64,000 nucleotides of DNA, taken from assembly GCA_964633315.1 (NCBI GenBank), contig CAZWGS010000011.1, positions 6,879 through 70,878 of the forward strand, read 5' to 3'. The translations under genes and the position numbers were made by a program. Shown piece after piece: positions 7,600 to 56,311 of this stretch. Position 1 is the first letter of the stretch. Each line of letters starts with the position of its first letter. The notes under the pieces were generated by a model. The model saw nothing but the letters and a program-made list of their open reading frames with translations, was not told where the DNA came from and did no database searches. This stretch comes from an uncultured bacterium. Lineage in GTDB: Bacteria; Cyanobacteriota; Cyanobacteriia; Cyanobacteriales; CAWCAG01.

Positions 7600-7760
7600 T
7601 TAATCAAGATACCACAGTGACTTCTCCAGACGTTGATGCTACGCATACAACGCTGGCTTCTCCAAATCCAGAAGGATAGAGAGAACTAGCTTTGAGGTAC
7701 TATTAGTAGTAGATGCTTTTACTACTGGATTCCCTTTACGCCGTATTATAGTCGGGAACA
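7600..7760 (-). ncRNA. Candidate TnpB guide RNA (omega/right-end RNA) region overlapping the tnpB 3' end
   Basis: This is inferred only from the known position of omega RNAs, at the 3' end of tnpB running into the element end, and from the hairpin at 7626-7656. The boundaries are guesses. Confidence 0.3.
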
Positions 7761-9018
7761 AGTCCAGCCCGACTCTCTTAAGGTTGATACTCGATGCTAT
7801 GTCACGGTCAACCCAGAGCTTTAATTCTTCATCCCAATACTTTCTGATACTGACATCGGTAAAAACAAACTCGTCTTTATAAGGTAATATCATCGAGGTA
7901 TACGCGGGATTTACTGCGACGACTGAAGCACCAGTTTTTTCTCCTATGTACTTCAAGATATTAAAAAACTGCCCAAATGCGGCATCTGCCCAAGACTTAT
8001 TTAAACCAGTTTTAGCAGACTGACCATTGGGTAAGTATCTACCCGTTTCGTCTTGCTTGGGCTTATTTCTTTTGCTCAACCGTGCTAGATTGAGTTTTTC
8101 GTGGAAGAAAACTTTTTTGTCAGTAGCCATCAGTTGATGAGCACTTTTGTAGGCGTGGTCTTTTCTGGCTCTAGCGATGCGCTGATGCACCCTGGCTTCT
8201 CGTTTGGCTAGTTTGCGTCTAGCTTTTGTGCCTCTTTTTCTATTGGATTTGCGCTGAGAAACTATGGCTAGTTTATGTTGTGATTTACGAAAAGATTTGA
8301 GACTTGGTAGCTTAACTCCCTCAGAAGTAGCCAGATAATCATCTTCGTGTAGAACTGCATCCATTCCCAGAGAGTTGCCCCAAGTCGGAGTAATGTCTGG
8401 TTTGAAATCAGGCACAGAAGTATCTTCTAGGCGTAAATTAATGTACCAGCCATCAGCTTTCTTAATTACCTGCAGTGACTTAAGCATCGCTCCGTTTGGT
8501 AACGAACGATGATGGCGAATTTTAACAATACCTATCTTTGGCAGCGAAACATATAGCCACTTACCACCAACCGAACAAGAATGTAGTTTCGCTCCTTCAA
8601 AAACCATCGAACGGAATCTAGAGGCATTTTTGATTCTAGGTTTGCCCTTTCGCTTCCCATTTTTGTCGCCAGATACGTACCTGTTAAAAGCTAGCTTGAC
8701 TCTGGTGCAGACTTCTTGAAGCGTTTGAGAAGGAACGCAATTAAAGTCTAGTAGTTCTTTGCTCCAACCTACAGCTACCAAATCTTGTTTGAGTTTTGGT
8801 AGCTGCTTTTTTTGTCCGTAAAACTCAGGCTTATCTTTAAGTCCTGGTAGATGGCAAACCAAAGGGCAGCTATTGACGTAGCAGCGATTTTGCTCCCACC
8901 AATCAAATCTCTCGCCAAGCTGACGATTGTACCAATAACGGCAAATCCGAAGCCACTCGTTGAGAGTTAGCTTCTTTTGTGTAGTTGGATATAGCCGATA
9001 TTGGTAGTTTAGTTTCAC
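7639..9018 (-). CDS. tnpB: IS200/IS605-family TnpB (OrfB) RNA-guided endonuclease-like protein
   Basis: The N-terminus is the typical YQYRLYPT..Q. RuvC-like acidic residues sit in LGMDAV, VFFHEKLNL and VDRDIASSINL. NPAYTS precedes the position where a zinc ribbon is usually found. Confidence 0.9.
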   Translation of the reverse strand: MKLNYQYRLYPTTQKKLTLNEWLRICRYWYNRQLGERFDWWEQNRCYVNSCPLVCHLPGLKDKPEFYGQKKQLPKLKQDLVAVGWSKELLDFNCVPSQTLQEVCTRVKLAFNRYVSGDKNGKRKGKPRIKNASRFRSMVFEGAKLHSCSVGGKWLYVSLPKIGIVKIRHHRSLPNGAMLKSLQVIKKADGWYINLRLEDTSVPDFKPDITPTWGNSLGMDAVLHEDDYLATSEGVKLPSLKSFRKSQHKLAIVSQRKSNRKRGTKARRKLAKREARVHQRIARARKDHAYKSAHQLMATDKKVFFHEKLNLARLSKRNKPKQDETGRYLPNGQSAKTGLNKSWADAAFGQFFNILKYIGEKTGASVVAVNPAYTSMILPYKDEFVFTDVSIRKYWDEELKLWVDRDIASSINLKRVGLDLFPTIIRRKGNPVVKASTTNSTSKLVLSILLDLEKPALYA

Positions 9019-13629: not shown

Positions 13630-14835
13630 TCAGCTTTTTCCAGGCGGTACAAGACCACGTTGTACTAAAGCATTATCTATATCTTTAAGTAAGGCAAAAT
13701 CTACTTCTGGCAAAGAGGAAGTTAGGGAAACAGATTGCTGCAAAAACGAGAAAGCTTGTCGGAATTGCTCTCTATCGGCTTCAATAGGTGAATTAAAGTG
13801 GCAAGGAATAATGCGTCCAAAATCCCATTTAGCAACCTTTTCTACCCAATTTAGAGTTGCTTGAGGCGCGCGATTGAGAATCAGGGTTTGCAGAATTGGT
13901 GCGACAAATAAACGCCCCCCACCATGGAGTGTCGCAAAAGATTGTTCCCAACTATCTTGCCAGCGAAAAGGAAATAAACCGAAATAGTTTCTACGAGAAT
14001 GATTTGGCGCTTTAAAGGCATCTCGTATTGATGGGACTAAAGGAGTTGTTTCTAGGGTACTGGGGCGAAAATAGAAGGCAAATAGAGAGATACGCTGCCA
14101 TCCCTTGCGGCGATTTGCTTGGTTATCCACAATAGAATCCCAGGGATAATCTTTGGCATGGAAGAGAAGGGGAAAAGGATCAAGTTGTACAATCGCTGGT
14201 GGCGTTTCGGGTATGGAAACTATCGTATCGGTAACTAGGAGGGTACGCGATTGGCGATGATAGAAAGCAACTTCCCCAAATTTGCCTAAATTTAGGTCTA
14301 TGGTACTGAGTATGGCATAGTCAAACTCCTGGGCAAAGGGGGTTTGGGTGCTGTCTTCAGGTAGGATGTGGGTTCGGTTTAGTGGATAACCTAGCCAACT
14401 GAGGGGTAAATTTAATGGGTAACTCCATTGGTTAGGAGCTACGAAAACCTGAGCCTGAGGGAATTTTCGGGCAAAGGGACCAACAAAAACTTTGTGCTCA
14501 ATGCCGGAAATTGTGGGCAAAATAATATACTTAACATCGCCGTATTTTGCCACTAATTCCTGAACTAATCTGATACATTCTGGAGTTGGTGCAACTGGCG
14601 CGTATACTAAAAGTCCCCCTTCTTGGAGTCTAATGACACTCATGCGAATGGGAACAACAACATAGAAAATGCCCTGCAGTTGGTCAAAAGTCCAGATGGT
14701 ATCTTTGACAACTTCGGTTCTAATTGTGCGCCGTTTGCTGTAAGGGTAGATTGGCACAGTAAACCAAAATTTCCACGACCAATCTTTTGTCTTCTCTGTT
14801 GTGTATTTGTTCATGGTGGTTTGCCCTTCCTCCAC
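13630..14835 (-). CDS. DUF4336-like protein
   Basis: It contains TIWTFDQLQGIFYVVVPIRMSVIRL..GGLLVYAPVAPT.EC, as in cyanobacterial/plant DUF4336 proteins. The start may be the internal MNKYT (14814). Confidence 0.7.
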   Translation of the reverse strand: MEEGQTTMNKYTTEKTKDWSWKFWFTVPIYPYSKRRTIRTEVVKDTIWTFDQLQGIFYVVVPIRMSVIRLQEGGLLVYAPVAPTPECIRLVQELVAKYGDVKYIILPTISGIEHKVFVGPFARKFPQAQVFVAPNQWSYPLNLPLSWLGYPLNRTHILPEDSTQTPFAQEFDYAILSTIDLNLGKFGEVAFYHRQSRTLLVTDTIVSIPETPPAIVQLDPFPLLFHAKDYPWDSIVDNQANRRKGWQRISLFAFYFRPSTLETTPLVPSIRDAFKAPNHSRRNYFGLFPFRWQDSWEQSFATLHGGGRLFVAPILQTLILNRAPQATLNWVEKVAKWDFGRIIPCHFNSPIEADREQFRQAFSFLQQSVSLTSSLPEVDFALLKDIDNALVQRGLVPPGKS

Positions 14836-25614: not shown

Positions 25615-28600
25615 ATGTCTAAAAGCTTTTGGAATCGACTGATATTATTGCTATTAGCGCTGTTTACTTTGAGCTTGGTATTAGATATTGCCTCGCGTCT
25701 AGTGGCAGAAATACTCTGGTTTGAGGAAGTTAAGTATCTTTCAGTTTTCACCAAGCGCCTAATCACGCAATTACTCTTACTCTTTGCTGGTATTGTACCT
25801 AGTGCTGCCTTTTTGCTCGGAAATTTATTTTTAGCCCAGCGTTTCCAATACCAATCGCCACAAAATTCAACCAGCAAAGTACCCTTTATCTCAGTCTCAA
25901 CAATTCGCCTCCCCACTCTACTAACAATTGCCATCATCCTCAGCGGCATTATTGCCTTGATGGTAATTCACGATCTTCAAATTGCTGACCAATTCTGGCA
26001 ACTAGATTTAAGCCTAGCGAAAATTACACCACCTTTGCCAGCACCCTTTGATTGGAAGGCTGGACAACAAATCCTGATTCAAATTGTCGCACAACCTTGG
26101 AAAATTGGCGTTTTCCTAACGGTAATGGTCATATTATTAATCAGACCAGAATTTTGTCTGCGTGCCCTTGCCATCTTGATGAGCCTTTTTTTTGGCTTAG
26201 TATTAGCGGGTAATTGGGAGCGTTTTCTCCAATACTTAAACCAGACAGAATTCGGACAAATAGAACCCTTATTTAACAAAGATATTAGTTTTTATGTTTT
26301 TAATTTACCCATCTGGGAAATTAGTAATTTTTGGCTGGGAGGACTATTTTGGTATAGCCTAATTTCCGTCACGCTAGTGTATTTACTGTCAGGAAATAGC
26401 CTATCGGAAGGCAAATTTCCCGGCTTTTCCCTACCGCAACTGCGCCATATCTATTTTTTAGGTGTTGTTGTCATGTTAATTACCGCCCTACGCCACTTGC
26501 TTACCCGCTATGAGCTTTTGTACTCAATCCAAGGCGTATCCTATGGTGCCAGTTACACCGAAGTCAAGACGCAACTACCAGCAGAAATGGTTTTGAGTGT
26601 AGTTGCCCTCACTATCGCCTTGTGGTTTCTATTTCGGGCGATTTTTGGTCGCTGGTACAGTTATAAATCAAAGCAACTTTCTCCCTCTAAGTTGCCCTTG
26701 AGAACTCACTTGCGCTACCTTCTCCTATTATTATTTGGCAATTACTTTGTCATCGCAGCCATTGGTACCATCTTAATCCCTGCAATTGTACAGACTCTGC
26801 AAGTACAACCCAACGAACTGGAACTAGAAACCCCCTACATCAAGCGTAGCATTGCCTTGACCAGAGCAGCCTTCGCCCTAGACACCATTGAAGTGAAAAC
26901 CTTTGACCCCGATGCACAACTGAGCGCTGCAAAAATCGAGGATAATAACCTTACCATTAAAAATATTCGTCTGTGGGATCAACGCCCACTGTTGCAAACA
27001 AACAGGCAACTCCAGCAAATCCGCCTCTACTATGGCTTTTCCGATGCTGATATTGATCGCTATAACCTAAAACTGGAAACATCAGGGGTAAGTGATGCAC
27101 TGCCAAATTCCAGTCTACTCCCAAGCAATGCTGATGACCCACTGCCCGGCGAAAAACAACAGGTAATTATTGCGCCGCGAGAACTTGACTATGAGGAAGT
27201 GCCAAGCCAAGCTAAAACTTGGGTTAATAAACATTTAGTTTATACCCACGGCTATGGTTTTACCATCTCCCCCGTTAATCGAGTAGCCGAAGGGGGATTG
27301 CCCTACTATTATGTTCGAGATATTGGCACAGCCGACGAAGCAGGGGCACTGCTTACCTCTAGCACTATTATTGCCGATAGCATTCCCATTACTAATCCAC
27401 GTATTTACTACGGAGAATACACCAAAAACTACATTATGACCTCCACCAAAGCCCAGGAATTGGACTTTCCCAGTGGAGAGGAAAATGTCTATAACACCTA
27501 CGATGGTACAGGGGGCATTGATATTGGTAATTATGGACGCAGATTTTTATTTGCGGAGTATCTCAAAGACTGGCAAATGTTGTTTACCAATAACTTTCAG
27601 AGTGATACGAAGTTATTATTTCGTCGCCCCATTAAAAGACGCGCCCAGATTATTGCACCCTTTTTGCGCTACGATGGCGATCCCTATCTAGTAACAGCAA
27701 ACGCCTCATTGCCTTCCCAAGCCAACTCATCGAGCCAAAATAATCATCTCTACTGGATTTTAGACGCCTATACCACCAGCGATCGCTACCCCTATTCTGA
27801 TCCAGGAGACAATACTTTCAACTACATTCGTAACTCTGTCAAAGTAGTAATCGATGCCTACAACGGTAATGTAGATTTCTTTGTTGCCGATGCCAAGGAT
27901 CCGATGATCCAAACATGGACTAAAATTTTCCCTAAGCTTTTCCATCCCCTAGAAGCAATGCCAGCAGCTTTGCGTAGTCATGTTCGCTATCCGGCGGATC
28001 TATTTAGCACTCAATCGGAGAGATTACTAACCTACCATATGACAGATCCCCAGGTATTCTACAATCGAGAAGACCAATGGCAAACTCCTCAGGAAATCTA
28101 CGGCAATGAATCTCGACCTGTAGAGCCATATTACATGATTACCAAATTGCCCACAGAGCAAGCAGAAGAATTTATTTTACTATCGCCATTCACACCCACC
28201 AGCCGTAATAATTTAATTGCCTGGATGGCTGGGCGTGCCGATGGTGATAATTATGGCAAACTGTTGCTGTATCAATTTCCCAAGCAAAAACTGGTTTATG
28301 GTACAGAACAAATCGAAGCCTTAATTAATCAAGATCCGGTCATTTCTCAGCAAATTTCCCTTTGGAATCGCCAAGGATCGCGAGCAGTTCAAGGTAACCT
28401 GTTGGTAATTCCCATCGAACAATCTCTACTTTATGTCGAGCCTTTGTACCTCGAAGCCGAAGAAAATAGCTTACCAACCCTAGTGAGAGTTATCGTCGTT
28501 TACGACAATCGCGTAGTAATGGCAGAAACTCTAGAAAAATCCCTGACAGCTATTTTTGAGCCCGAAAAGCTTGAGCAGACAACGATAATTCGTTCTGTGG

Positions 28601-28623
28601 AATTAGAGAATATTACCAACTAA
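25615..28623 (+). CDS. UPF0182-family large membrane protein
   Basis: The 1002-aa product has multiple N-terminal TM helices and conserved soluble-region strings (NIRLWD, YTHGYGF, NPRIYYGE, HLYWILDAYTTS..YPYS). Confidence 0.75.
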   Translation: MSKSFWNRLILLLLALFTLSLVLDIASRLVAEILWFEEVKYLSVFTKRLITQLLLLFAGIVPSAAFLLGNLFLAQRFQYQSPQNSTSKVPFISVSTIRLPTLLTIAIILSGIIALMVIHDLQIADQFWQLDLSLAKITPPLPAPFDWKAGQQILIQIVAQPWKIGVFLTVMVILLIRPEFCLRALAILMSLFFGLVLAGNWERFLQYLNQTEFGQIEPLFNKDISFYVFNLPIWEISNFWLGGLFWYSLISVTLVYLLSGNSLSEGKFPGFSLPQLRHIYFLGVVVMLITALRHLLTRYELLYSIQGVSYGASYTEVKTQLPAEMVLSVVALTIALWFLFRAIFGRWYSYKSKQLSPSKLPLRTHLRYLLLLLFGNYFVIAAIGTILIPAIVQTLQVQPNELELETPYIKRSIALTRAAFALDTIEVKTFDPDAQLSAAKIEDNNLTIKNIRLWDQRPLLQTNRQLQQIRLYYGFSDADIDRYNLKLETSGVSDALPNSSLLPSNADDPLPGEKQQVIIAPRELDYEEVPSQAKTWVNKHLVYTHGYGFTISPVNRVAEGGLPYYYVRDIGTADEAGALLTSSTIIADSIPITNPRIYYGEYTKNYIMTSTKAQELDFPSGEENVYNTYDGTGGIDIGNYGRRFLFAEYLKDWQMLFTNNFQSDTKLLFRRPIKRRAQIIAPFLRYDGDPYLVTANASLPSQANSSSQNNHLYWILDAYTTSDRYPYSDPGDNTFNYIRNSVKVVIDAYNGNVDFFVADAKDPMIQTWTKIFPKLFHPLEAMPAALRSHVRYPADLFSTQSERLLTYHMTDPQVFYNREDQWQTPQEIYGNESRPVEPYYMITKLPTEQAEEFILLSPFTPTSRNNLIAWMAGRADGDNYGKLLLYQFPKQKLVYGTEQIEALINQDPVISQQISLWNRQGSRAVQGNLLVIPIEQSLLYVEPLYLEAEENSLPTLVRVIVVYDNRVVMAETLEKSLTAIFEPEKLEQTTIIRSVELENITN

Positions 28624-40470: not shown

Positions 40471-41241
40471 ATGACAGCTCAACAAGTTGTTCCTACCCTA
40501 AGTGCAACATCTATTCTCGAAGGTGTTAATGCTGTTAGTGTTAGTCAATTACCCTCGATTTGGCATAAGATTGAGTGTGGTGAAGCCCAAATAGGACATC
40601 CTAACCCTAAGTTTTTAGTTGCTTTAGCTCGATTATTCTTCACCAAAGCAACTGATCGCACTCCAGAAATTTTTCAACAAAGATTTGATTGCCAATCTCT
40701 TTATCAACAGGGAGCTTGGGATACTCTACAATTTTTCGGTGCCGATTATCTACTATCAGCCTATCCCAATTTAGAATTAGCCAAACAGACTGCTGTCGCA
40801 ACAGATGGTGTCCAGCGCGTTATTGCTTTTGTCGCTGATGTTTTTGCTGAATTTGGATACGAACTACCAGCATCTTTCTATCAGATGCTACTATGTCCCA
40901 TTGAGCGTGACTCCATCCTAGAATCGCGAGCAATGGCTTTTGATCCTCGTATGCAGGGTGTAAAACGTCCCTATGACGCTTGTCTCCACGCACTCAATGT
41001 GACGCGAATCATGATGGTAGTTCAAGATAAAGCTGCTGCTCATGGTCTATTATTGCAACATGGTTGTGGTTGCGATAGCCACTTAACCGACATTCAATCA
41101 TCTGTACGTGGTGCAACTGTACGTTATTCCTTTGAAGATCGCAACACTCGCCACAAAGCGATTACAGCTTATATTTGGCGCGTGTGGAATGAATATCTAC
41201 TCTTTCCCATGTCTATTCAGTCACAAACCCTTGCTCTCTAG
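40471..41241 (+). CDS. Hypothetical protein
   Basis: This is a clean 256-aa ORF. I recognised no family. Confidence 0.5.
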   Translation: MTAQQVVPTLSATSILEGVNAVSVSQLPSIWHKIECGEAQIGHPNPKFLVALARLFFTKATDRTPEIFQQRFDCQSLYQQGAWDTLQFFGADYLLSAYPNLELAKQTAVATDGVQRVIAFVADVFAEFGYELPASFYQMLLCPIERDSILESRAMAFDPRMQGVKRPYDACLHALNVTRIMMVVQDKAAAHGLLLQHGCGCDSHLTDIQSSVRGATVRYSFEDRNTRHKAITAYIWRVWNEYLLFPMSIQSQTLAL

Positions 41242-41325
41242 ATTAGACTTCTTGCTGGTAGTTTCCCAACTACCAGCAAAATATTGGCAAACAAAGACTT
41301 CTTTCCTTACTAGCTCATTTTCTCT

Positions 41326-44076
41326 TTACTCTGTACATAGAGCATCGCTATTCTCTTCAATATTCTCGAAATCTATGGAATCTGAAGTATCTCGTACTAC
41401 CTTAACTAATCGAGATTCTCTTTGAGGATCACCCGAAGCCCAGAAACGAAGTTCTTCCCCTGATGTTTCATAGCACGAAAGATTGACTTTAGTTAGATTT
41501 TCAAGAACTGTTGCTCGTGTAACATTTTCTGGATCGCTATTGGATATTGCCTCAATAAAAGCCTTAGTTGCATCATAAGCATATGCTGTGCGCCAGTTAA
41601 CTTGATCGTCTTTATCACCGTTATTCCATCTCTTTTTTGCGTCTTTTCCATAAATACTATTATCAGACCAAGCTACAGCTAAAATAAGGTTTTCAACTGC
41701 AACTCCACCATGTGACAAAGTCTCAAGATCATGCAATGCATCACCACCTAATAGTGGCAGCTTTTTAGATTCAGGAAGTTCGTTATTTGCCCTTGCGACA
41801 GCAATAGCAACAGAAGTTGTTTTCACACTAGGTAATAGTACTGCTGCTTGTACTTGATTTTCATCAACAGATTGCTCGATTATGTCTTTTATATCTATTT
41901 CAATATTTTTCAGGTTAATTTGTTGATCAGCATTGCCTCCTAAATTTGTAAATTCATCTTCAAAGGCTTGTTTCAGACTTTTACTGTAAATACTATCAGC
42001 ATCATAAAAAATTATCACTTTTTCAGTCTGTAAAGTATTTTTGGCATACTGAGCAAGCTTCTTACCTGCTAATTCATCTGAAGGAACAGTACGAAAGAAA
42101 ACTTCGCTGTGTAATTCGGTACTAGTACTAGTAGGAGAAATCATAGGAACTTCAACCTTTTCGTACTCTTTTAATGCCACTTCACTCATTTCACTAGATG
42201 TATGTCCAACTACCCCTAAAACTTCTGAACGCCTGGTTAAATCTTTGGCAATTTTCCGAGCTACTTGTTTATCGCTCATATCGTTATTAATAACAATTTC
42301 TAGCAGACGACCTTCGATACCATTTTTTTGATTGAATTTATCTTGTGCATCTGCCACACCTCGTAAAACGTTTTTAGTAGCATGTTCTTCGTAATCTACA
42401 GAAACCACTACAGCTAGCTTAAAGGGAGGATAATCTTGTTGACGAGCCCTCGCATTATTCAGATAAATTTTTGGTTCTGGGTCATTGGGAACAACATTTA
42501 CAGCTTCTTCAAACAGCGTCATTGATCTTTCATAGTTACCATTTTGGAAATCCTTAATTCCCTCATTGAGATCGTAGTTAGCACGGGAACTAAAGAGTCT
42601 TTTCTCTCCACTGCTCATTTCAATTTCTTTACAGGTATTGTTTAATCTGACAGAACCTCGTCCGCAAAAAACTGCACCATAGAACCATGATGTCGTAGCA
42701 ACTATGCCAAGAGTAATAGTAGTGAGGATAAAAACAGCAGTTAACTTCATTTTATTACTTTGTCTTTCTTTCTCTAGAGTTAATTGAGCTGAAGTTTCTT
42801 TCCTTTCCAATTCTTGACTAGCATTAAGAAACTGATAATCCTGACTTTTTAAAGTTTTATCCTCTGCCCACTCTAAAGCTTCCTTGAGTTTTTCTTCTTT
42901 CAGTAGCCATTTATCCTGACGATTAGATTCTAGCCAAGCCTCAATATATTCGGTATAAGGACAGAGTTTTTTCAGTTGTACATTTATCCACTCCTGGTCA
43001 AATATTTCTCCATAAATGCGATTGTAAACTCTCAATTTACCTTGTTGTTTGATGACTAAACCAGATAAACGTAACTTCATCTGTTCAGAACTGTCATTAG
43101 CAGAAATATATCCTTGTTGCAGAATTTGCTGATACAATCCCAGCAATCTACCTAGACATTTTTTGTTTTTTCTGAGGCGATCACGTATTGTCCTAAAATG
43201 CTCTGGATTATCCTGTGATTCCCAATTTTCTATTACTTTAGATCGTACTAACTCCTGTAACCATTCCGTTTCTTCTTCTGGTGGAATATTAGTATTAGTC
43301 TGAACAATAAGCTGACATATTTTTTGGGTTAGAAAAGGCTGTCCTCCAGTCCAAAATAAAACCTCTGCTAATACCTTTCGAGGATTACTTGTTTGATTTA
43401 CTAACCCTGCTGCTAACGGTTCAGCTTCATCTAATTTGAAACCAGAAGGTTCTATGGCTTTACCAATATTAAAAGGAGTACGTTTTTTGTCTTGAATGAA
43501 GTCTGATGGAGTAGCCACTCCTAATAAAGCAAAAGTAAGGCGATTATAGGCTGGATTATCCACTCGCTTATTGTAGCAAGCACGAATAAAAGCAAAGAAA
43601 TCATCAGAAAAAAATCCTAAACTAAGAACAGTCTCAACTTCATCAATGAATATGACTATATTTTGCTTTATTTCTACAAACACAATTTGCTCAAAAAACT
43701 CTCGCAAACGTTGCACAGCAGATAAATTTTCTCGCTCTTCCCACCATTTTCTTCGGGTCGAATATGTCAGTAATTCAAACTCACTTGCTAATTCATGAAA
43801 TATAGCCATGTACAAAGAAATTGAGTTTTCATGATCGCTACCAATTGTTGTGAAATCGATAGCAACACAAATTACTCCTTCTGCTTGCAATCTTTGCATT
43901 GTTTGCACACGCAAGCTAGATTTACCCATTTGGCGTGAGTTCAACACAAAACAAAAATCTCCTGCTTTGAGGTCTTGATATAAGTCTTCATCAGCTTTCC
44001 GTATCACATAACTTGGTGCATCAGCAGCGAGACTACCTCCAACTTGATAATGATATTTAGTCATATCTTGAACCAT
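41326..44076 (-). CDS. AAA_35-like P-loop NTPase fused via one TM helix to a type-1 periplasmic (Leu/Ile/Val-type) binding domain
   Basis: The N-terminus reads YQVGGSL...[11 protein letters not shown], with Walker [11 protein letters not shown] and Walker [11 protein letters not shown] linker ...[23 protein letters not shown] follows, then a TM helix [26 protein letters not shown]. The PBP1 strings are [22 protein letters not shown] and FRTVPSD. Confidence 0.8.
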
Positions 44077-44120
44077 CTTGCATCCCTTTTAAATTTGCTA
44101 AGTATCTGTTTAATTTTGAG

Positions 44121-45416
44121 TTAATAAGAAAGCCTTTCTTTAAAATATTTAGCATACAAATTACAGCGAGGCTTGACATTATTACCCTCAAAAACTGTCA
44201 GTCCCAAACTTTGTAACTTAAACGCTAAGGTTGTCTCTAATCGCACAGGTTCATGGGCTTGCACTACCTGTTTCATTGCTTCTAGTAATTCTGGATATTG
44301 TTGTAGATTCAACCAATGTACTCGTAGATGATGATTATAAATTCCTTCTTCTGTATCTGCTTTTTGCAGCATTTCTTCGAAGAAATTTTGCCTCATCTTC
44401 AGGTAACCGATGGCTTTTTGAACTAGACAAGGATGACCGCCAAGTAAGCAGATAATTTGTTGAACCTGTGAATCATCCCAAATTACTCCTTGTTGACTTG
44501 CCAAAGCCTGTATCTGCTCTGAAGTGAATTCAGGTAATTCGATTGGTACTCCAATATTAAACGGTGAATGATTTTTATCCAGTGGAATGTAAATATCTGT
44601 GGCATGAGCTAGAACAAGTCGTAGTTTTTGCCACAAAGGACGACTTTTTGCTTTTTCATGCCAGCCTCGCAACATTCCTAAGAAGTTATCTGCAAAAGAA
44701 GCATCGAAAATCCTGTCTACTTCATCCAAAGCTAAGACTAAGGGACTATTGATTTTAGGCAGTAGATGTTCCTTAAAATAAATATTACAGTTAGAGACGC
44801 TACTAGAATTATCCATCCAATAATTACTTAGTGCTTCTGATAATTCCAACTGTTGACTAATAACGGTACAAAACCAGCGTAAAAAATCATTTAATGAGCT
44901 AGACATTATCTCGCTTGCATCTTTTAGATCAAGAAATACAATTTGGTAATTTTTTTTTATTGCCTCCACTAGAATCCGGTCAACCAACAAACTTTTTCCC
45001 ATAGACTTAGGAGATTTAATTCGTAGCAGAGAACCGGGTTTAGAAATAGTTTCATAGCAGAGAGATTCAATAGGATATCTCTCAATATAATGTTCAAAGG
45101 TTTGAATTAATTGAGGTGGTGGGTTAGTCGGAGTTGTATAGCTTTCGGTCTTCTCAAAGTCAGCTATTTCTTTCCAGTTCAAACCCAATGCGTAACTAAG
45201 TTCTTGAAAATTGTGAATATTAACAGCTTTGCGATTGAGAAAGCGATTGACAGTGGATAAACATAGTCCTATCACATCTGCTAAATCTTGTTGACTGGCA
45301 AAACCATTTCGTATTACAGCCTGCCTAACACGTTCCTCATGTTGACGAGATATCTTGAGCGATCTTGCTAATCTTGACATAATTCCTTCAGAATCGATTT
45401 CGCCCAAATAATACAC
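44121..45416 (-). CDS. HTH-domain protein fused to an AAA_35-like P-loop NTPase
   Basis: The N-terminal HTH reads SQQDLADVIGLCLSTVNRFLNRK. Walker A is KSPKSMGKSLL and Walker B is LVLALDEVDRIF. The probable start is MSRLARS (45377). Confidence 0.75.
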   Translation of the reverse strand: MYYLGEIDSEGIMSRLARSLKISRQHEERVRQAVIRNGFASQQDLADVIGLCLSTVNRFLNRKAVNIHNFQELSYALGLNWKEIADFEKTESYTTPTNPPPQLIQTFEHYIERYPIESLCYETISKPGSLLRIKSPKSMGKSLLVDRILVEAIKKNYQIVFLDLKDASEIMSSSLNDFLRWFCTVISQQLELSEALSNYWMDNSSSVSNCNIYFKEHLLPKINSPLVLALDEVDRIFDASFADNFLGMLRGWHEKAKSRPLWQKLRLVLAHATDIYIPLDKNHSPFNIGVPIELPEFTSEQIQALASQQGVIWDDSQVQQIICLLGGHPCLVQKAIGYLKMRQNFFEEMLQKADTEEGIYNHHLRVHWLNLQQYPELLEAMKQVVQAHEPVRLETTLAFKLQSLGLTVFEGNNVKPRCNLYAKYFKERLSY

Positions 45417-45572
45417 CGCTTTTTCAGCTAACTAAGGCTACTCACGAATAAGTCACTCACGAGATAAAATTGTTATTAAGTGATGATAAACTTAGCCTGA
45501 TGTGATGTTGCACTGACTCTTTACTCAGTAAACGTCGTGATTTCATGGGATTGTTGAAAAGAAAATAGACCC

Positions 45573-46250
45573 ATGAATAACAAGCAAAAGCTAGGACACT
45601 CTTTCACTTTTAATCTAGCCCAAGAGCAAACTGAAGTAGAGCAGATTAAGTCACAAGATTTTTCCCATCACATTGTTCAAAAACCTGATTTTGACGTTTA
45701 TACCTGTCAGCTAACAGTAATGTTTTGCGATCTTGTGGGTTCAACTGCTCTCTCAGAACAATTAGCCCTTTGTGCTTATTGGAACATACTTCAACAATAC
45801 CAGGAACGTTGCAGTCTTATCATCCAAAATTGTCAAGGCTACATTTCTCAACCTTTAGGTGATGGATTGATGATCTATTTTGGCTTCCCTACTCTCCAAC
45901 AAGATGATGCAACTAGAGCAATACAAGCTGGCTTAGATGTATTATTGGCTATTGAACAACTCAACGTTTTTTTCAAAGAATGGGAAATTAACCTTGCAGT
46001 GCGAGTTGGAATTGCGACAGGAGAAGTATTAATGGCGCAAGTTCATTCTAGTGATAAATCTGAGTGGCTTGCGATTGGAGTAATACCAAATATTGCAGCT
46101 CGACTACAAAGTTTAGCCCCTTCTAACTCTATTGTTTTTTGTCCCAAAACTCATCAATTAGTGAGGGAATGTTTCGACTGTCAATCTTTGGGAGCAAAGA
46201 GTCTTAAAGGAATTTCCCAACCAATGGAAGTATATCAGGTATCCAGATAA
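45573..46250 (+). CDS. Stand-alone class III nucleotidyl (adenylate/guanylate-type) cyclase catalytic domain
   Basis: The metal-binding Asp residues lie in VMFCDLVGST and LGDGLMIYFGFP. The transition-state Asn/Arg lie in IGVIPNIAARLQSLA, and VRVGIATGEV is present. No other domain was seen. Confidence 0.85.
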   Translation: MNNKQKLGHSFTFNLAQEQTEVEQIKSQDFSHHIVQKPDFDVYTCQLTVMFCDLVGSTALSEQLALCAYWNILQQYQERCSLIIQNCQGYISQPLGDGLMIYFGFPTLQQDDATRAIQAGLDVLLAIEQLNVFFKEWEINLAVRVGIATGEVLMAQVHSSDKSEWLAIGVIPNIAARLQSLAPSNSIVFCPKTHQLVRECFDCQSLGAKSLKGISQPMEVYQVSR

Positions 46251-46448: not shown

Positions 46449-47066
46449 ATGCCAATGCTAATTCCACACCAACTCAAATTACTTGGTTTAGTGAGCACAA
46501 CGATTCTAGTATGCTCCTTTGCCACTCCTCAATCAGAAATGAAGCTGCTACCAAATGCAGTAGTTTCAGCGCAAGAGGAAACAATAGATTCTGAGACTCA
46601 AACATGGCAAGAAATTACTTCCCTGGAAGGCAAATTTAGTGTCATGATGCCAGGAAATCCTTCTGTGGAGTCACCAGGAAATAACCAAGATTCTGCTCAA
46701 TTTTCCTTGCAAACCAAAGGAGGAGAAATTACTTATACAATAACCTACAATACCTTACCCAACCCTGAACGACAGTTAAGTGAGGAACAAGTTAACCTTC
46801 TACTTGATGCAAGTCAGCAAGTACTTATTGGTAATGGTAGATTGTTAGAGAAAATAGATCTCGAACTAGAAGACGATTATATAGCTAGAGAAGTGACAGG
46901 AGTGCGTCCAGAAGGCTCTTTTCAAGCCAGATTTTATTGGGTACATCCACGTCTTTATGTATTGTTAGTAGGAGTAAACACAGGAACCGAATTCCCGCAA
47001 CAGCAAGCACAGGCATTTCTTCGTTCCTTTAGACCCCTAGTAGAAGATAATATTGAGTCACCATAA
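46449..47066 (+). CDS. Hypothetical secreted protein
   Basis: It has an N-terminal hydrophobic signal-like segment (LKLLGLVSTTILVCSFA). I recognised no family. Confidence 0.5.
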   Translation: MPMLIPHQLKLLGLVSTTILVCSFATPQSEMKLLPNAVVSAQEETIDSETQTWQEITSLEGKFSVMMPGNPSVESPGNNQDSAQFSLQTKGGEITYTITYNTLPNPERQLSEEQVNLLLDASQQVLIGNGRLLEKIDLELEDDYIAREVTGVRPEGSFQARFYWVHPRLYVLLVGVNTGTEFPQQQAQAFLRSFRPLVEDNIESP

Positions 47067-47133: not shown

Positions 47134-47505
47134 ATGTTGAGTTGGTCAAGAATACGAGGTGTGCTGCTGGGAATTGTCCTTACCTTAGCTTGTCATCTCA
47201 TAGCGATTTCCACCGTTGTGTTAGTTTCTTCTCTCATTTACGGTATTCTCTACATTCACCTCAATCTACTACCGTTCAATGAACATGAAAACTTTTTCTA
47301 TGGTTTTTTGATAACAGCACTAGCAGTTTCTGGAGTTGGTCTCTATCAAGTTCTTTATATCCTACCCTTGAGGCGATGGTGTCGTCACCAAAGACACTAC
47401 GGATTACGTCAGGGAGTAGGAATTGCAGCTATTGTTACTACTGCGGTTAGTGTTTATGGTTTTATTTATGTACTTTGGTATTGGTATACTGCTTCCTTAC
47501 CTTAG
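47134..47505 (+). CDS. Hypothetical small 4-TM membrane protein
   Basis: Four hydrophobic helices fit into 123 aa, and it lies 67 nt after the preceding gene. Confidence 0.5.
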   Translation: MLSWSRIRGVLLGIVLTLACHLIAISTVVLVSSLIYGILYIHLNLLPFNEHENFFYGFLITALAVSGVGLYQVLYILPLRRWCRHQRHYGLRQGVGIAAIVTTAVSVYGFIYVLWYWYTASLP

Positions 47506-47538: not shown

Positions 47539-48741
47539 TCACCCACGGCTTAAAGCGCGTGGGCTTTCGCCAACCGCTAAACCTTGGTGTTTTAGTAGCC
47601 CTGAATCCAATGCACAAGACAAAGAATCCGAACCTCGGAGGAGGCTTACGACCCCTCCAATAATAGACAAGACATAGCTTGCGTTTTGATCAGCATCACC
47701 ATGCCAACCGCACTTAGAATTAGTACACTTAAATCTCTTCCCACTTCTCAACCCCAAGTGCATACACCCATGACAAGTTTGAGAGCTGTATCGTGGGGAA
47801 ACTGGGATTACCTCAACTCCGTTAATCAATCCTTTGTATTCAACAAAAGTACGAAGTTGATAGAAAGCCCAAGAATTAGAGCGTCTTCTTTCAGTCTTGC
47901 TCCTAGGTTGTTGGTTGGTTGTGTTTCTAATCCCACTCAGGTCTTCAATAGCCACGATGCTATTAGATTTATGGGCATCAATAATTATGGTTTTGCTGAT
48001 GACATGGTTGACATGGCGTTGAAATCTTTTCTCCCGCCCCGACAGCCGTTTCAACAATTGCCGACATCTACGTCTGCTACTGCGTGTGCCTTTCGAGGCG
48101 CGTTTTTGGAGGTTAGCGCGTTGCTTAGAGTATCTGTCTCTAACATCACGAATTTCTTTGCCAGACCATTTCTGGTTTTGCGAAGTAAATGCTATGTCGG
48201 TGCGCCCAAAATCCACGCCGATAACATTTTCAGATTTAATTGGTTTCGGTGCATCATCCTTAACCTGAATATGAATGTAGTAATTACCATCTCTATGTTT
48301 GCAAAGTTGTGCCGAGGTTGGCTTACTACTTTTAAGTTTTCCAATTTGATAGTTGCTGGTAACGATGGGAATATGTTCTCTACCGCCAACCAAAGTTAGA
48401 CTAACAGACCAGTCTTTCTCGCGAAAAGCAAATATCCGAGCATCATAATCAGCAGATGTCGGCTTGAATGCTTTGACGGGCTTTTTATCTTTCTTAGCGG
48501 TTTTGCGGTTAGCGCCAACCCTCGCGCAAGCCCTGACAGCCAAGTTAGCCGACAAACCGTATCTATCTCTAATAGTTTGATAAACCTGAGATTGAATAGT
48601 AGCTTTGCTAGTTATAGAGGGCTTAACTTCCTGGTTGGCATAGTTACAAGCAGCAGCAAACATCTCAAGAGTAGCGTCAATTTTTGTGACTATTTCTTGA
48701 GAAGGGTTGAGTTTGCAAACTATAGTCAGGACTTGCTTCAT
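47539..48741 (-). CDS. tnpB: IS200/IS605-family TnpB RNA-guided endonuclease-like protein
   Basis: The RuvC triad lies in IGVDFGRTD, IVAIEDLSGI and HGDADQNASYVL. A zinc ribbon CHGC...CTNSKC is present. The start is taken at MKQVLT (48741), because the track's N-terminal extension runs through the end hairpin. Confidence 0.85.
   Translation of the reverse strand: MKQVLTIVCKLNPSQEIVTKIDATLEMFAAACNYANQEVKPSITSKATIQSQVYQTIRDRYGLSANLAVRACARVGANRKTAKKDKKPVKAFKPTSADYDARIFAFREKDWSVSLTLVGGREHIPIVTSNYQIGKLKSSKPTSAQLCKHRDGNYYIHIQVKDDAPKPIKSENVIGVDFGRTDIAFTSQNQKWSGKEIRDVRDRYSKQRANLQKRASKGTRSSRRRCRQLLKRLSGREKRFQRHVNHVISKTIIIDAHKSNSIVAIEDLSGIRNTTNQQPRSKTERRRSNSWAFYQLRTFVEYKGLINGVEVIPVSPRYSSQTCHGCMHLGLRSGKRFKCTNSKCGWHGDADQNASYVLSIIGGVVSLLRGSDSLSCALDSGLLKHQGLAVGESPRALSRG
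47540..47700 (-). ncRNA. Candidate TnpB omega/right-end guide RNA region
   Basis: This is inferred from position (the tnpB 3' end running to the element end) and from the terminal hairpin at 47542-47563. The boundaries are guesses. Confidence 0.35.
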
Positions 48742-48820
48742 GAGCCCGATCGTATCACGAGTGACGGCACTTAAAAGTGCCGAGTCAAAATTCCTCCAAC
48801 GGCTCAAAGCGCGTTGGCTT
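47540..48820. mobile_element. Solo-tnpB IS200/IS605-type (IS1341-like) element without tnpA
   Basis: Same-orientation subterminal hairpins sit at both ends. They are CCCACG-GCTTAAAGCG-CGTGGG (47542-47563) and CCAACG-GCTCAAAGCG-CGTTGG (48796-48817), each followed by GCTT(T/C)C. Confidence 0.7.
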
Positions 48821-53251: not shown

Positions 53252-56200
53252 CTAAACAACTTCTAAATCCACTTGGAATACAAAGTCATTAAAGTCTCCG
53301 TCACCCAAACCTAATTCATCTTCAAAGGCAAAGAAATTATCTCCCAACAGTACCAGATGATCTAAACCATCGGCATTAGCTTCGAGGAAAGGAGAGTAGA
53401 ATTGATCGATATCGCCATCGCTAAGAAGATAAGGTGCATAGAGGAAACCACCAAATAGCGTTGTTGGTTCAGGATTAATTAGGCTGAACTCTACCACACT
53501 ATTATTAACAGCAGCTTGGGCATAACCCTCGTCTCCGGGAGTGAATAATTGTCCTGTTACAGGATCGAAAACTGTACCTGCTTCATCCAAAATGGTGTAC
53601 AAACCACCCACATTACCGAAACCAGCTTCTTCAGTGGCATTAATTGTGGCTGATATCAGTTCTCCTGATTGTTCACTGAGATCAATTAACTCAATTTCTC
53701 CCTGAAGTCCAGTTCCTATTGGCAAGCTTTCTTCAACAACTGCAACATTAACTACGAGATCGTTAAAGTCTTCGCCTGCGCCATCTTCAAAGCCAAGAGT
53801 GAAGCTACCATCTCCCACAGCACTAAAATCTACGCTGTTGGCAATTAAGACGCTATCAAGTAAGCTAGAGTCTGCCAATACCGCATCAGTAGTGGTGTCA
53901 GCTACTACATAGAAGCCGATTTCTTGTCCTGCGCTTAAACCGTCGATAATGCGTCCAGAAGTGGTAAAACCTCTATCTGCAAGAAACTCTTGAGAGGTGC
54001 TTGAAAGGGAAGAGAAAATTACTTCACCACTTTCTAGAATATCGGTAACACTTTGTCCGGGCTCAACAATATAGGTACCAATTTCATTGACGAAGTCTGC
54101 ATCTACACTTTCTAGCAGGAACTGAAGAGTTACTTCTGGATCGTTACCGCCAAGGATAAATGTATCATCGTCAGTTAGCTCCAGACTAGCAGGGACGAAG
54201 TCTTCATCGGTGGTAATAGTACCTACTACAGCTGAATCTGTACCAACGGTGTAGTCTGGATCTGGTGTTAGAGTAAGAGCAATAGTTTCGTCTGGTTCAG
54301 CAATGTCATCTGCCACTGGAGTTATGCTAATAGTGCCAGTGTTAGTACCTGGAACCAAACTACTAATACCATCAATACGTGCACTACCAATATCAGTTCC
54401 AGCTAAGTCTGCGTCACCTAAAAACTCAGCAAATTCAGCGGAAACCAGCAAGTCAGCTTCGCTAATCGAGAGACTATCTATAGTGGTATCAACATCTCCT
54501 GGATCGCCAATATCAAAGAGAATAAGATCGGTGTCTAAAGTATCTTCAACAAAGAAACCACTAGCAAGATCCGTATCCCTTGTAGCGTCAAAACCAATGG
54601 AGAAGTTACCTACATTGGCAGTACCTAGGGCATTAGTGAGGTCAATTGAGCCAGTGTGCTCAATGGTACCTTCTAGAGGTGTTAAACCATTTTCTAGATT
54701 ATAGGTAAAGTCTGTTGCCTCAGCAATAGTGAAGCCTACAGCAGTTTCACCATCGGGGAAACCATCGGTATTAGCATCTACAGTACCTTCAGTTCCGGTA
54801 ACAGTAATGCCTAGAGTAGCTAGAAGTGCTGTATCGAGTCCAACACTGGTAACACCAGAGTCAAGGTCAAATTCTGTAGCCTCAATTTCAATGCTACCGC
54901 TACTGGCATCGAAGGTAAATGTGCTGTCGCTGGTTACAGTGTAATCTTCATCAAGGGTTGCTGTTCCGTCAACGCCGAAGTTTACTGTCAGGTCTTCGTC
55001 AAGGATACCATCAACACTGAAAGTGTAGACCAGGCTTTCTAAACCATCTTCGACTACCGCTTCTGGTGCTACTGCAAGGTTAACAATTGGTCCTGGTGCT
55101 TCGTCAATAACCAATTGTCCTCGAATCTCTCCTGCGGGGAAAGCTTCGGTGTGAATATTCCAGTAGAAGGGTACTTCTTCACCTTCTTCTGCTTCGCGGA
55201 ATGTCTCAACAAAGTTACTTAGGGAAATGGTATTGGGGTCAGTTTCTTCCCAAACTCCTGTTAAAGTAACAGTACCATCGTCATTGAGGACAATTTCGAA
55301 ATCATCGGCATCTTGATCATCGTACTGGGAAGCAACTAGGTCAATCAAACCAAGGACAATGGGACCATTTTCTCCACTGGGTGCATTATGAATGTGGACT
55401 CTGGTAACATCATCCTCGGTGGTTTCTGTAAAAGCTGTACCATCACCGATAAAGGCACCAAAATCCAAACCATCTACTGTTAGGCTGTATTCTAGGGCAT
55501 CACCTGCAGCGTTAAGGGTTAGGATAGAAGTGCCTGTGGCGCTGCTACCGGAAGGAGTAACTTCTTGATCGCCACTTAAAGTAGATTCTATAGCTACTGG
55601 TTCTGATACCGCCACAGCATCAGCAAAGGCGATATTAATGGTGGCGAGAGTGTAATCGGGTTGGGTAAAATCAGCGTTGGCAAAGTTGGGATCATCTAAA
55701 ATACCACCACTACCAGGAGGTAAGAATCCTGTTGTCGCTGTGGTAACAACACCATTTTCATCCACACCTGTATTTGGTGCAGCTTGTCCGAAAAAGGCTG
55801 TATTTGCAGGTATTTCGTCGTTAACTTCCGTACCTGCATCCCGTACTAGGTTACCAGTGACGGTGATAGTTGCACCTTCTTCAGGATCGCCAAGGAAGTT
55901 ACCATCATCGTCAAAGACTTCAAAACGCAAGGGGTTACCGTTACCGACGAAAAAGTCGTTACTCGGTAGCACCATTGAAGCGTAGCTAAAGTAATTGCTG
56001 GTGGGATCATTAGGATCTACCGTGAAGTTAAAAGATACTGTCTCGCCCACATCCAAAGGACCAGGAGCATCACCTTCTAAACCAGGAATGGTAAAATCAA
56101 TTCCTGCATTCTCATCGTTAGAGAAGGCAGCATTTAAAGGACCTGCATTACCATCCTCTGCGATTTGCTCAATAAAAGCAAAATCAGGAAAAATTGACTC

Positions 56201-56311
56201 ATCGAGATTATAAAGATCAAATTCGCCATTATGAAAACCTACCCAGACTGGAGTGAGTAGAGTACCGTTTTCTGGCGCTACATTGGTGATTGTGACTGTT
56301 AATGTTTCCAT
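53252..56311 (-). CDS. Large acidic multidomain protein: spondin_N-like, CHRD, Calx-beta-like repeats and two DUF4114-like domains
   Basis: The spondin-like start is TITNVAPENGTLLTPVWVGFHNGEFDLY...IAEDGN. The CHRD domain reads LSGDQEVTP...VHIHNAPSGENGPIV...WNIHTEAFPAGEIRGQL. The Calx-beta strings are VNFGVDGTATLDEDYTV and ...AEPDETIALTL. The DUF4114 strings are GFEDGAGEDFNDLVV and FEDELGLGDGDFNDFVF. There is no signal peptide, and an in-frame TAG lies 3 codons upstream of the ATG. Confidence 0.8.
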   Translation of the reverse strand: METLTVTITNVAPENGTLLTPVWVGFHNGEFDLYNLDESIFPDFAFIEQIAEDGNAGPLNAAFSNDENAGIDFTIPGLEGDAPGPLDVGETVSFNFTVDPNDPTSNYFSYASMVLPSNDFFVGNGNPLRFEVFDDDGNFLGDPEEGATITVTGNLVRDAGTEVNDEIPANTAFFGQAAPNTGVDENGVVTTATTGFLPPGSGGILDDPNFANADFTQPDYTLATINIAFADAVAVSEPVAIESTLSGDQEVTPSGSSATGTSILTLNAAGDALEYSLTVDGLDFGAFIGDGTAFTETTEDDVTRVHIHNAPSGENGPIVLGLIDLVASQYDDQDADDFEIVLNDDGTVTLTGVWEETDPNTISLSNFVETFREAEEGEEVPFYWNIHTEAFPAGEIRGQLVIDEAPGPIVNLAVAPEAVVEDGLESLVYTFSVDGILDEDLTVNFGVDGTATLDEDYTVTSDSTFTFDASSGSIEIEATEFDLDSGVTSVGLDTALLATLGITVTGTEGTVDANTDGFPDGETAVGFTIAEATDFTYNLENGLTPLEGTIEHTGSIDLTNALGTANVGNFSIGFDATRDTDLASGFFVEDTLDTDLILFDIGDPGDVDTTIDSLSISEADLLVSAEFAEFLGDADLAGTDIGSARIDGISSLVPGTNTGTISITPVADDIAEPDETIALTLTPDPDYTVGTDSAVVGTITTDEDFVPASLELTDDDTFILGGNDPEVTLQFLLESVDADFVNEIGTYIVEPGQSVTDILESGEVIFSSLSSTSQEFLADRGFTTSGRIIDGLSAGQEIGFYVVADTTTDAVLADSSLLDSVLIANSVDFSAVGDGSFTLGFEDGAGEDFNDLVVNVAVVEESLPIGTGLQGEIELIDLSEQSGELISATINATEEAGFGNVGGLYTILDEAGTVFDPVTGQLFTPGDEGYAQAAVNNSVVEFSLINPEPTTLFGGFLYAPYLLSDGDIDQFYSPFLEANADGLDHLVLLGDNFFAFEDELGLGDGDFNDFVFQVDLEVV

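Follow-up and report, generated by a model that had tools for sequence, protein, structure and literature searches.

A cyanobacterial gene pair that may form an effector-NTPase-sensor switch split in two and spanning the membrane

A 64,000-nucleotide stretch of DNA from an uncultured cyanobacterium (lineage CAWCAG01; contig CAZWGS010000011.1, positions 6,879 to 70,878), called the window in what follows, encodes on its reverse strand a predicted membrane protein of 916 residues with a nucleoside triphosphatase (NTPase) module and a type 1 periplasmic binding protein (PBP) domain, here named L. Directly upstream lies the gene of a second protein with a paralogous NTPase module, here named S, which the original prediction, made from the letters of the window, had overlooked. 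We give an even chance to the reading in which L is the membrane sensor subunit and S the output subunit of a split effector-NTPase/NTPase-sensor pair that signals across the membrane, and S and L most probably function as one unit. In this split layout S consists of an effector and a module, and L of a module followed by a linker, a transmembrane (TM) helix and an extracytoplasmic sensor; whether S and L interact physically, which way the signal runs, which ligand is bound and which DNA is targeted are points at which we infer rather than observe. What would be new here is an effector-NTPase-sensor switch of the STAND (signal transduction ATPases with numerous domains) or AAA+ type that is split in two and spans the membrane, and its significance lies less in a single protein than in the conserved pairing and the extracytoplasmic sensors.

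The pairing was followed in 84 relative loci, 80 of them from species-representative genomes and four found through identical proteins. S was followed by L on the same strand in 53 of the 84, with the gene order S-L in 48 loci, S-L-L in three, S-L-L-L in one, and S-L with another S behind it on the other strand in one. The gaps between S and L in these relatives were often -4 or -1 nt, that is, overlapping, and fragments or remnants of S were detected in four further loci. One S gene before several L genes is the arrangement to be expected if several alternative sensors share one output subunit; arrays of this kind occur among loci L016, L039, L055, L062, L066 and L071, with an S gene plus three L genes of ~1160–1210 aa in L066. 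Distances between S modules correlated with those between the paired L modules (Mantel r 0.775 for 53 pairs, a value reached in 0 of 999 permutations), which argues that the pair diverges as a cassette. At least 594 related stretches were counted in species-representative genomes, and in this sample the family was almost exclusively cyanobacterial, mostly from filamentous genera. Two L-type genes lie outside Cyanobacteria proper, in metagenome-assembled genomes of Actinomycetota (L077, with no S gene within 6 kb) and Sericytochromatia (L038), and could reflect horizontal transfer or binning error.

Outputs and sensors are shuffled among the pairs in a modular way. At the N-terminus of the 66 S proteins compared we detected CHAT (17), TIR (16), Trypsin_2 (6), Pkinase (4), Guanylate_cyc (4), sigma70 region 4 or helix-turn-helix (HTH; about 8), GGDEF (2) and caspase (1) domains, and some S proteins gave weak Pfam matches to ATPase_2. 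At the C-terminus of 79 L proteins we detected WD40 propellers (47) and PBP domains (about 15), mostly behind a TM helix. PBP-type L genes were found next to HTH-type S genes (the window, L003, L004, L073), TIR-type (L006, L007), trypsin-type (L008, L010, L015) and CHAT-type ones (L012, L013), and one sensor type is therefore combined with several outputs.

The L gene of the window starts with ATG, preceded at 8 nt by an AAGGGA ribosome-binding-like site, and its parts are as follows.

41326..44076, reverse strand: L gene, 916 aa, L-type AAA_35, linker, TM helix, TPR-like pair and type 1 PBP domain (open reading frame, Pfam, AlphaFold2 model).
42997..44037, reverse strand, residues 14–360: NTPase module, predicted cytoplasmic, with P-loop domain, helical domain bearing TGGQPFL and winged helix (Pfam, N-terminal model, Foldseek).
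43915..43941, reverse strand, residues 46–54: Walker A, NSRQMGKSS, with K52 in 78/78 aligned L proteins.
43633..43656, reverse strand, residues 141–148: Walker B, VIFIDEVE, with D145 and E146 each in 78/78 aligned L proteins.
42745..42996, reverse strand, residues 361–444: L-specific helical linker, whose last helix continues into the TM helix (hhalign, DSSP).
42664..42744, reverse strand, residues ~445–471: single TM helix, predicted N-in/C-out (Kyte-Doolittle, homologues).
42439..42663, reverse strand, residues 472–546: juxtamembrane segment, predicted outside, with a Cys471/Cys483 hairpin, SSGEKRLF and a TPR-like helical pair (family cysteine counts, AlphaFold2, designed TPR proteins of the Protein Data Bank, PDB).
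41362..42438, reverse strand, residues ~547–905: type 1 (LivJ/ANF-receptor-like) periplasmic binding fold (Pfam, PDB sequence matches, Foldseek).

The original prediction had read from the sequence an NTPase with Walker A and B motifs, a linker, one membrane helix and a binding domain, in that order, and the profile searches bore this order out. AAA_35 (PF14516) matched residues 14–360 over profile positions 4–330 of 331 (E 1e-28; 100.6 bits against a cutoff of 27), Peripla_BP_6 residues 568–895 (E 1e-26) and ANF_receptor residues 577–750 (E 5e-14), and both Walker motifs were found intact at residues 46–54 and 141–146. No output or effector domain of L was recognisable in the Pfam scan. An AlphaFold2 model of the whole protein, built on 102 homologues, reached a mean predicted local distance difference test (pLDDT) of 87.9, and its C-terminal domain superposed on LivK-type proteins. 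The predicted binding fold of ~430 aa held as the size of the whole ectodomain, but the PBP fold itself spans only ~360 aa. The same full architecture was present in 102 of the 120 best database clusters; with more than 100 such homologues, an assembly or fusion artefact behind L was ruled out. The combination, with at least 100 cyanobacterial homologues, is thus neither rare nor a one-off.

The partner gene and the spacer between the two genes were delimited in the same way.

44121..45416, reverse strand: S gene, 431 aa, HTH plus canonical AAA_35 NTPase, proposed output subunit (Pfam, locus order).
45117..45380, reverse strand, residues ~13–100: candidate HTH domain of S (scanned alone, HTH_24 at 22.4 bits with a cutoff of 21.9 and HTH_26 at 23.1 bits with a cutoff of 22).
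44136..45095, reverse strand, residues 108–427: AAA_35 module of S, with Walker A PKSMGKS and Walker B LALDEVD (Pfam, motif counts).
44077..44120, reverse strand: S-L spacer of 44 nt with an AAGGGA ribosome-binding-like site (sequence).

AAA_35 matched S with E 2e-126 and 421.7 bits. The GTG called as the start, at 45416, probably lies too far 5'; an ATG at 45380, after GAAGGA, would give a protein of 419 aa beginning MSRLARSL. A scan of positions 40900–45800 returned no terminator-like site and fewer promoter-like sites than shuffled sequences, and is therefore uninformative on whether S and L form an operon.

Only one segment of L, at residues ~442–471, exceeded a Kyte-Doolittle value of 1.6 in a 19-residue window, and no N-terminal signal peptide was found. 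The helix is kept in nearly all L homologues. In the 102 homologues of the same architecture, lysine plus arginine amounted to 3.57 in the 15 residues before the helix and 1.58 in the 15 after it, and the N-terminal side was the richer one in 89. The juxtamembrane segment contained no cysteine in 51 homologues, two in 43 (mostly 11 residues apart) and a single one in only two, and within this family the ectodomain had a mean of 0.94 cysteines compared to 5.9 in the NTPase module. The positive-inside bias, the hairpin with paired cysteines, the cysteine-poor ectodomain and the requirement of the NTPase for ATP all support a predicted N-in/C-out topology, with the NTPase inside and the binding domain outside, as originally proposed together with the single helix.

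One element of the original prediction did not survive the comparison with relatives, namely that the linker usually precedes cytoplasmic WD40 or TPR repeats. Of 79 relatives of the L NTPase module, 62 have a TM-like helix after the linker, most of the WD40 types among them, and the positive-inside bias was seen in every C-terminal class of L, WD40 included. The layout described as inside-out is therefore the rule in the L subfamily and not the exception. Most WD40-type L proteins (loci L018–L086) have a strong TM helix before the repeats, with a positive-inside bias (27 of 34 in a heuristic classification), and periplasmic WD40 propellers of ~700 aa, themselves unusual, are predicted for this type. 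The linker itself (~80 aa) is absent from S proteins, as the hhalign match between L and S stops at L residue ~362. DSSP placed helices at residues 361–371, 375–383, 394–404 and 411–454 of this region, with W363, P373, Y374, W381, W403 and F416 kept in the L family; the string by which the linker had originally been recognised sits at about residues 399–421.

For the NTPase module, a PDB sequence search with residues 1–444 of L gave no match even at E<=10, and only the fold comparison was informative. A model of residues 1–440 (pLDDT 93.5, predicted TM-score 0.88) was closest by Foldseek to the archaeal ATPase_2 proteins 2qen and 2fna (E 5e-10 and 5e-9, TM-score to target 0.58–0.60) and to archaeal ORC/Cdc6, these two groups ranging from 5e-10 to 4e-7, followed by CED-4, Avs3, Avs4, Avs5, MalT and Apaf-1 at 3e-6 to 3e-5. 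The three parts of a STAND core, an NTPase, a helical domain with a GxP motif and a winged helix, are all present in the model: the GxP-type motif TGGQPFL is nearly invariant in the L family, and a beta-hairpin at residues 341–350 follows helices 305–337. At the sensor-1 position after strand 4, L has Thr189 (Thr in 74 of 79 L proteins) and not an arginine of the STAND type; the STAND class criteria of Leipe, Koonin and Aravind from 2004 are said to include such an arginine. No STAND protein came ahead of ATPase_2 and ORC/Cdc6 in the Foldseek ranking, and effector, NTPase and sensor do not share one polypeptide, the effector being on the separate S protein. The original description of L as STAND-like thus stands at the fold level, although its nearest structures are ATPase_2 and ORC/Cdc6 rather than CED-4, Avs or MalT, and a classical STAND assignment is not demonstrable.

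Homology between the modules of S and L extends over 324 columns (hhalign probability 99.6, 21% identity), and they form two distinct paralogous subfamilies, L being, on this alignment, a divergent AAA_35 subfamily. Motif counts were made on 78–79 aligned L proteins and on the 66 S proteins. The GKS of Walker A (residues 51–53) and the DE of Walker B (residues 145–146) were invariant in 78/78 L proteins, and because the Walker A lysine and the Walker B Asp-Glu never vary, L is very probably an active NTPase. The residue just before the TPFNIG motif is an arginine in 65 of 79 L proteins, roughly at the place of an AAA+ arginine finger, and mostly glutamine in S (44 of 66). Walker B was eroded in 10–16 of the 66 S proteins (Asp to Asn in six, Glu to Asn in ten) and never in L. 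These asymmetries are hints of a heteromeric assembly.

The same observations bear on the main rival explanation, a sequestration switch, in which L would tether S to the membrane or let it go depending on the ligand state. Once released, S would act as a free homo-oligomer, and the S-L complex would be the inactive form and not the active assembly. The pairing and co-divergence data fit this explanation equally. As a complete effector-plus-module protein, S could oligomerise alone, some S proteins carry a sigma70 region 4, and MalT (8bob) is among the structural neighbours of the L module. MalT is restrained by MalK, a transporter ATPase, and membrane-bound anti-sigma factors hold sigma factors. 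However, a passive tether would have no need for invariant Walker A and B motifs (78/78) or for a conserved finger-like arginine, and an S gene with more than one L gene behind it is easier to understand if the L proteins are alternative activators than if each is a tether. On balance we consider sequestration unlikely.

The predicted outer part of L begins, at residues 472–546, with a hairpin (strands 475–484), a conserved SxGExxLF motif, a glycine (G490) invariant in the family, and a TPR-like pair (helices 501–546) with TPR matches to PDB designs. The domain that follows showed both the profile match and the two-lobe Venus-flytrap fold of a type 1 PBP: PDB sequence matches were to 4mlc, 4gnr, 3td9 and LivJ, and Foldseek superposed it on Atu2422, LivK and a leucine-bound substrate-binding protein (3ip5, 3td9, 4q6b) with TM-scores of 0.82–0.86. 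The pocket was aligned by BLAST with a LivJ sequence that reproduces the published pocket numbering. In LivJ, Ser79, Ala100–Thr102, Tyr150, Tyr202 and Glu226 bind the alpha-amino and alpha-carboxylate groups of the amino acid. On this basis we take S628 to correspond to LivJ Ser79, T649-S650-T651 to Ala100–Thr102, Y697 to Tyr150 and, by hand alignment only, D779 to Glu226. S628 was found in 102/102 homologues and Y697 in 98/102. The frame that holds the amino-acid backbone thus appears to be conserved, with specificity positions varying among paralogues, and an amino-acid-like ligand is plausible for the L copy of the window.

A search with the ectodomain (residues 473–915) against 1.84 billion representative proteins yielded 571 representatives at E<=1e-30, of which the best 150 comprised 20 AAA_35-L proteins, 75 short membrane-anchored proteins and 55 other long proteins. 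In most of these other long proteins a TM helix precedes the ectodomain, and among the N-terminal parts a Pfam scan of 54 of the 55 detected nSTAND1 (15), nSTAND2 (7), AAA_16 or ATPase_2 (~19), CHAT (9) and Ser/Thr kinase (5). The NTPase-TM-PBP design therefore arose with several NTPase families, a recurrence which argues that the design is functional and the PBP a sensor rather than a transport component. One protein of the short membrane-anchored kind, a stand-alone paralogue of the ectodomain, is also encoded in the window.

4887..6308, forward strand: stand-alone L-ectodomain paralogue, 473 aa, with a hydrophobic N-terminal anchor, STGDKLL and a TPR-like pair (Peripla_BP_6 E 7e-38; 33% identical to L residues 487–903).

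Databases offer another role, in which L would be an ATP-binding cassette (ABC) transporter substrate-binding protein that feeds branched-chain amino acids to an importer. Many L homologues bear this name at NCBI and JGI, and the best NCBIfam match of L is to a LivJ-type subfamily, with 48.6 bits against a cutoff of 477. The binding domain, however, forms the C-terminus of a membrane protein of 916 aa whose cytoplasmic NTPase takes up 440 aa, and the same ectodomain occurs on kinases, CHAT proteases and other NTPases, from which we conclude that it is a sensor module. No permease or ABC ATPase gene was found within 10 kb of L or in the loci of four relatives. A role in import, which we consider extremely improbable, was rejected for L, as it has neither a signal peptide nor the form of a stand-alone substrate-binding protein, nor a permease or ABC ATPase next to it. 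The public name "ABC transporter substrate-binding protein" is thus misleading for L, and "AAA-like domain-containing protein" is uninformative.

If L is the sensor subunit and S the output subunit, a small ligand would first bind the LivJ-type Venus-flytrap domain in the periplasm, and its closure would be passed on through the juxtamembrane hairpin and TPR-like pair, the TM helix and the L-specific linker. The NTPase module of L would then be freed for nucleotide exchange and would associate with S through the homologous modules. As a result the N-terminal domains of S would be clustered; in the window, the HTH domains would thereby act on DNA and alter transcription, and in relatives proximity would activate TIR, CHAT or trypsin domains. 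The ATPase_2, ORC/Cdc6 and STAND families all act by nucleotide-dependent assembly.

Several observations weigh against this assignment of roles. The HTH domain of S is a marginal one, at 22–23 bits. The TM segment of the window is the weakest of its family, with a Kyte-Doolittle maximum of 1.81, and the charges flanking it are nearly balanced (four K/R on the N-terminal flank, three on the C-terminal one), so that the orientation is deduced from the family and from the ATP requirement of the NTPase. Both S and L of the window have intact NTPase motifs, which speaks against an obligatory division of labour here. As for the ligand class, the residue at D779 is Asp in just 30 of 102 homologues, LivJ Tyr202 corresponds to V751, and LivJ Tyr18 is not kept. 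Simple co-inheritance of adjacent genes could also give the co-divergence of S and L. Finally, ~6 loci have L and no S within 6 kb, and in some cases L may therefore work without S.

Loci of this last kind are what would be expected from an explanation in which L works by itself, as a homo-oligomeric receptor or scaffold in the membrane, and S is a regulator in its own right that has only the operon in common with L; the intact NTPase motifs of L fit it, and the topology known from ExeA provides a precedent. Against it, L is without a recognisable output domain, S precedes L in 53 loci of many genera with frequent start/stop overlap, and the division of variable effectors and variable sensors between two paralogues is hard to explain without a joint function. 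We therefore hold this explanation to be improbable.

A more specific and more tentative proposal than that of sensor and output subunits is that S/L pairs are cyanobacterial transmembrane receptor pairs resembling the nucleotide-binding leucine-rich repeat (NLR) proteins, in which extracytoplasmic PBP, WD40 or TPR sensors nucleate a cytoplasmic S-L hetero-oligomer that sets off cell death through TIR, CHAT or trypsin effectors, or an HTH response. The cues could be amino acids or pieces of wall leaking out of damaged or infected cells nearby in a filament with a common periplasm. We see this as possible rather than probable; if true, no earlier switch of the STAND/AAA+ type would have been shown to have its sensor outside the cytoplasm, and the pairs would link surface-receptor immunity to that of the NLR type in bacteria. 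Should S and L assemble at all, they would show how binding of an extracellular ligand is converted to nucleotide-dependent oligomerisation inside, as a bacterial counterpart to sensor/helper NLR pairs and as an undescribed signalling system, possibly one of cell death, found in this sample almost only in cyanobacteria. Such a system would matter for the integrity of filaments, the collapse of blooms and the way multicellular immunity evolved, and a pair of the HTH type could serve as a ligand-gated transcription switch.

Around the pair, the region between S and the neighbouring gene, a nucleotide cyclase, contains two kinds of repeats, and further genes were noted on either side.

45440..45462: direct repeat ACTCACGA, present twice with 15-nt spacing, just 5' of the S start.
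45542..45577: perfect 8-nt inverted repeat TTCATGGG/CCCATGAA across the start codon of the cyclase.
45573..46250, forward strand: stand-alone class III nucleotide cyclase, 225 aa, divergent from S and 156 bp away.
46449..47066 and 47134..47505, both forward strand: small open reading frames behind the cyclase without Pfam match, one with a hydrophobic N-terminus and one consisting of hydrophobic segments.
47539..48807 and 7639..9018, both reverse strand: IS605-type OrfB/TnpB (Cas12f-like TNB) genes, one of them 2 kb from the S-L pair.

The repeats may be operators recognised by the HTH of S, or chance occurrences. Against the Pycsar PycC models the cyclase gave a best E of 2e-18, which may reflect mere general cyclase homology, and no cyclic-nucleotide-binding effector was seen. 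The cyclase was rejected as a conserved partner of S-L, since no such gene adjoins the pairs of four relatives including Symploca, Nostoc and Chroococcidiopsis; a local regulatory link in this organism is possible, and a cyclase is fused to S in 4 of the 66 S proteins. Pairs of relatives lie amid transposase fragments (L005) or toxin-antitoxin genes (L006), and together with the TnpB genes of the window such neighbours suggest variable genome regions. The segments 53252..56311 (reverse strand), 25615..28623 (forward strand) and 13630..14835 (reverse strand) represent ordinary chromosomal context, and the neighbours in the window include a 1019-aa CHRD and DUF4114 protein, a UPF0182 membrane protein and a DUF4336 protein, as well as MutS, aspartate carbamoyltransferase, ChlB and ComEC.

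The original prediction knew of no characterised example of this design, and our literature searches agreed, as they returned no functional description. Nothing was found on PF14516; for AAA_35 together with cyanobacteria, the one source was a census of sigma factors that lists it among accessory domains (PMC11119718); no work joining periplasmic binding protein, STAND NTPase and transmembrane was found; and a 2026 STAND survey preprint does not mention the AAA_35 L/S family. The S-L pair, which is widespread among cyanobacteria, is apparently undescribed in the literature. PADLOC-DB 2.0 has no model for either protein: L matched only mad8 (E 0.004), with no stretch passing alone, S had no match, and the TIR domain of the S protein of one relative matched TIR models only.

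The closest precedent is the nSTAND2 two-gene operon, for which a hetero-toroid with an inactive, effector-bearing partner was predicted (Kaur, Iyer, Burroughs, Aravind, eLife 2021; PMC8195603), the hetero-multimer being deduced from conserved arginine fingers (its GT4-domain section). Both systems are computational predictions only, and both have adjacent genes with paralogous STAND-type NTPase modules, one of them with variable effectors. The eroded motifs of the nSTAND2 effector partner have a partial counterpart in the eroded Walker B of 10–16 of the 66 S proteins; unlike that partner, which is always inactive, the S of the window is intact (LALDEVD). The nSTAND2 effectors are GT4 or HEPN, those of S proteins CHAT, TIR, trypsin or HTH; for the nSTAND2 pair no TM helix or extracytoplasmic sensor was described, and nSTAND2 (PF20702) had no match on S or L at E<=0.01. 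The supplement of the same paper lists an nSTAND1+PBPb fusion without comment (PMC8195603), and a periplasmic lectin domain was predicted on one NACHT protein (Doré et al. 2024; PMC10907252). EACC1 "System 4" (EACC1 plus caspase; Kaur et al. 2020), which has a TM helix followed by an extracellular PBP, was rejected as a different system with no AAA_35.

Other systems share single features with L. The archaeal ATPase_2 proteins (PF01637; 2qen PAB2304, 2fna SSO1545) provide the best structural matches of its module, but they are soluble and about 15% identical. ExeA/GspA of Aeromonas, a cytoplasmic P-loop ATPase joined through a TM helix to a periplasmic peptidoglycan-binding domain, organises an envelope structure by secretin assembly, and like the ToxR/CadC-type regulators it has the N-in/C-out arrangement of L, the N-terminal domain being large and cytoplasmic and the ligand-binding one periplasmic. 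In contrast to L, both belong to unrelated families with unrelated functions and have no paired paralogue with shuffled effectors, and in the ToxR/CadC type the membrane protein itself binds DNA. Receptor guanylyl cyclases and bacterial kinase-TM-PBP proteins share with L the Venus-flytrap ectodomain, one TM helix and a cytoplasmic signalling module, and the Pkinase-TM-PBP proteins P0136 and P0161 have the same type of ectodomain; the cytoplasmic module of L differs from theirs as an NTPase without catalytic output, the output lying on a paralogous protein.

The widest likeness is with the STAND/NLR switches (MalT, Apaf-1/CED-4, Avs, bacterial NACHT), which have the same core of NTPase, helical (GxP) and winged-helix domains, an N-terminal effector, a variable C-terminal sensor, and TIR, caspase-like CHAT, trypsin or HTH effectors. 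The nearest solved folds of L are nevertheless ATPase_2 and ORC/Cdc6, with a threonine and not an arginine at sensor-1, and S-L places effector and sensor on two polypeptides, with the sensor outside the cytoplasm behind a TM helix. To our knowledge, all characterised switches of this kind (MalT, Avs, Apaf-1, plant NLRs) sense their ligands inside the cell. The division of sensor and executor in S-L resembles that of NAIP-NLRC4 and of the plant sensor/helper NLR pairs.

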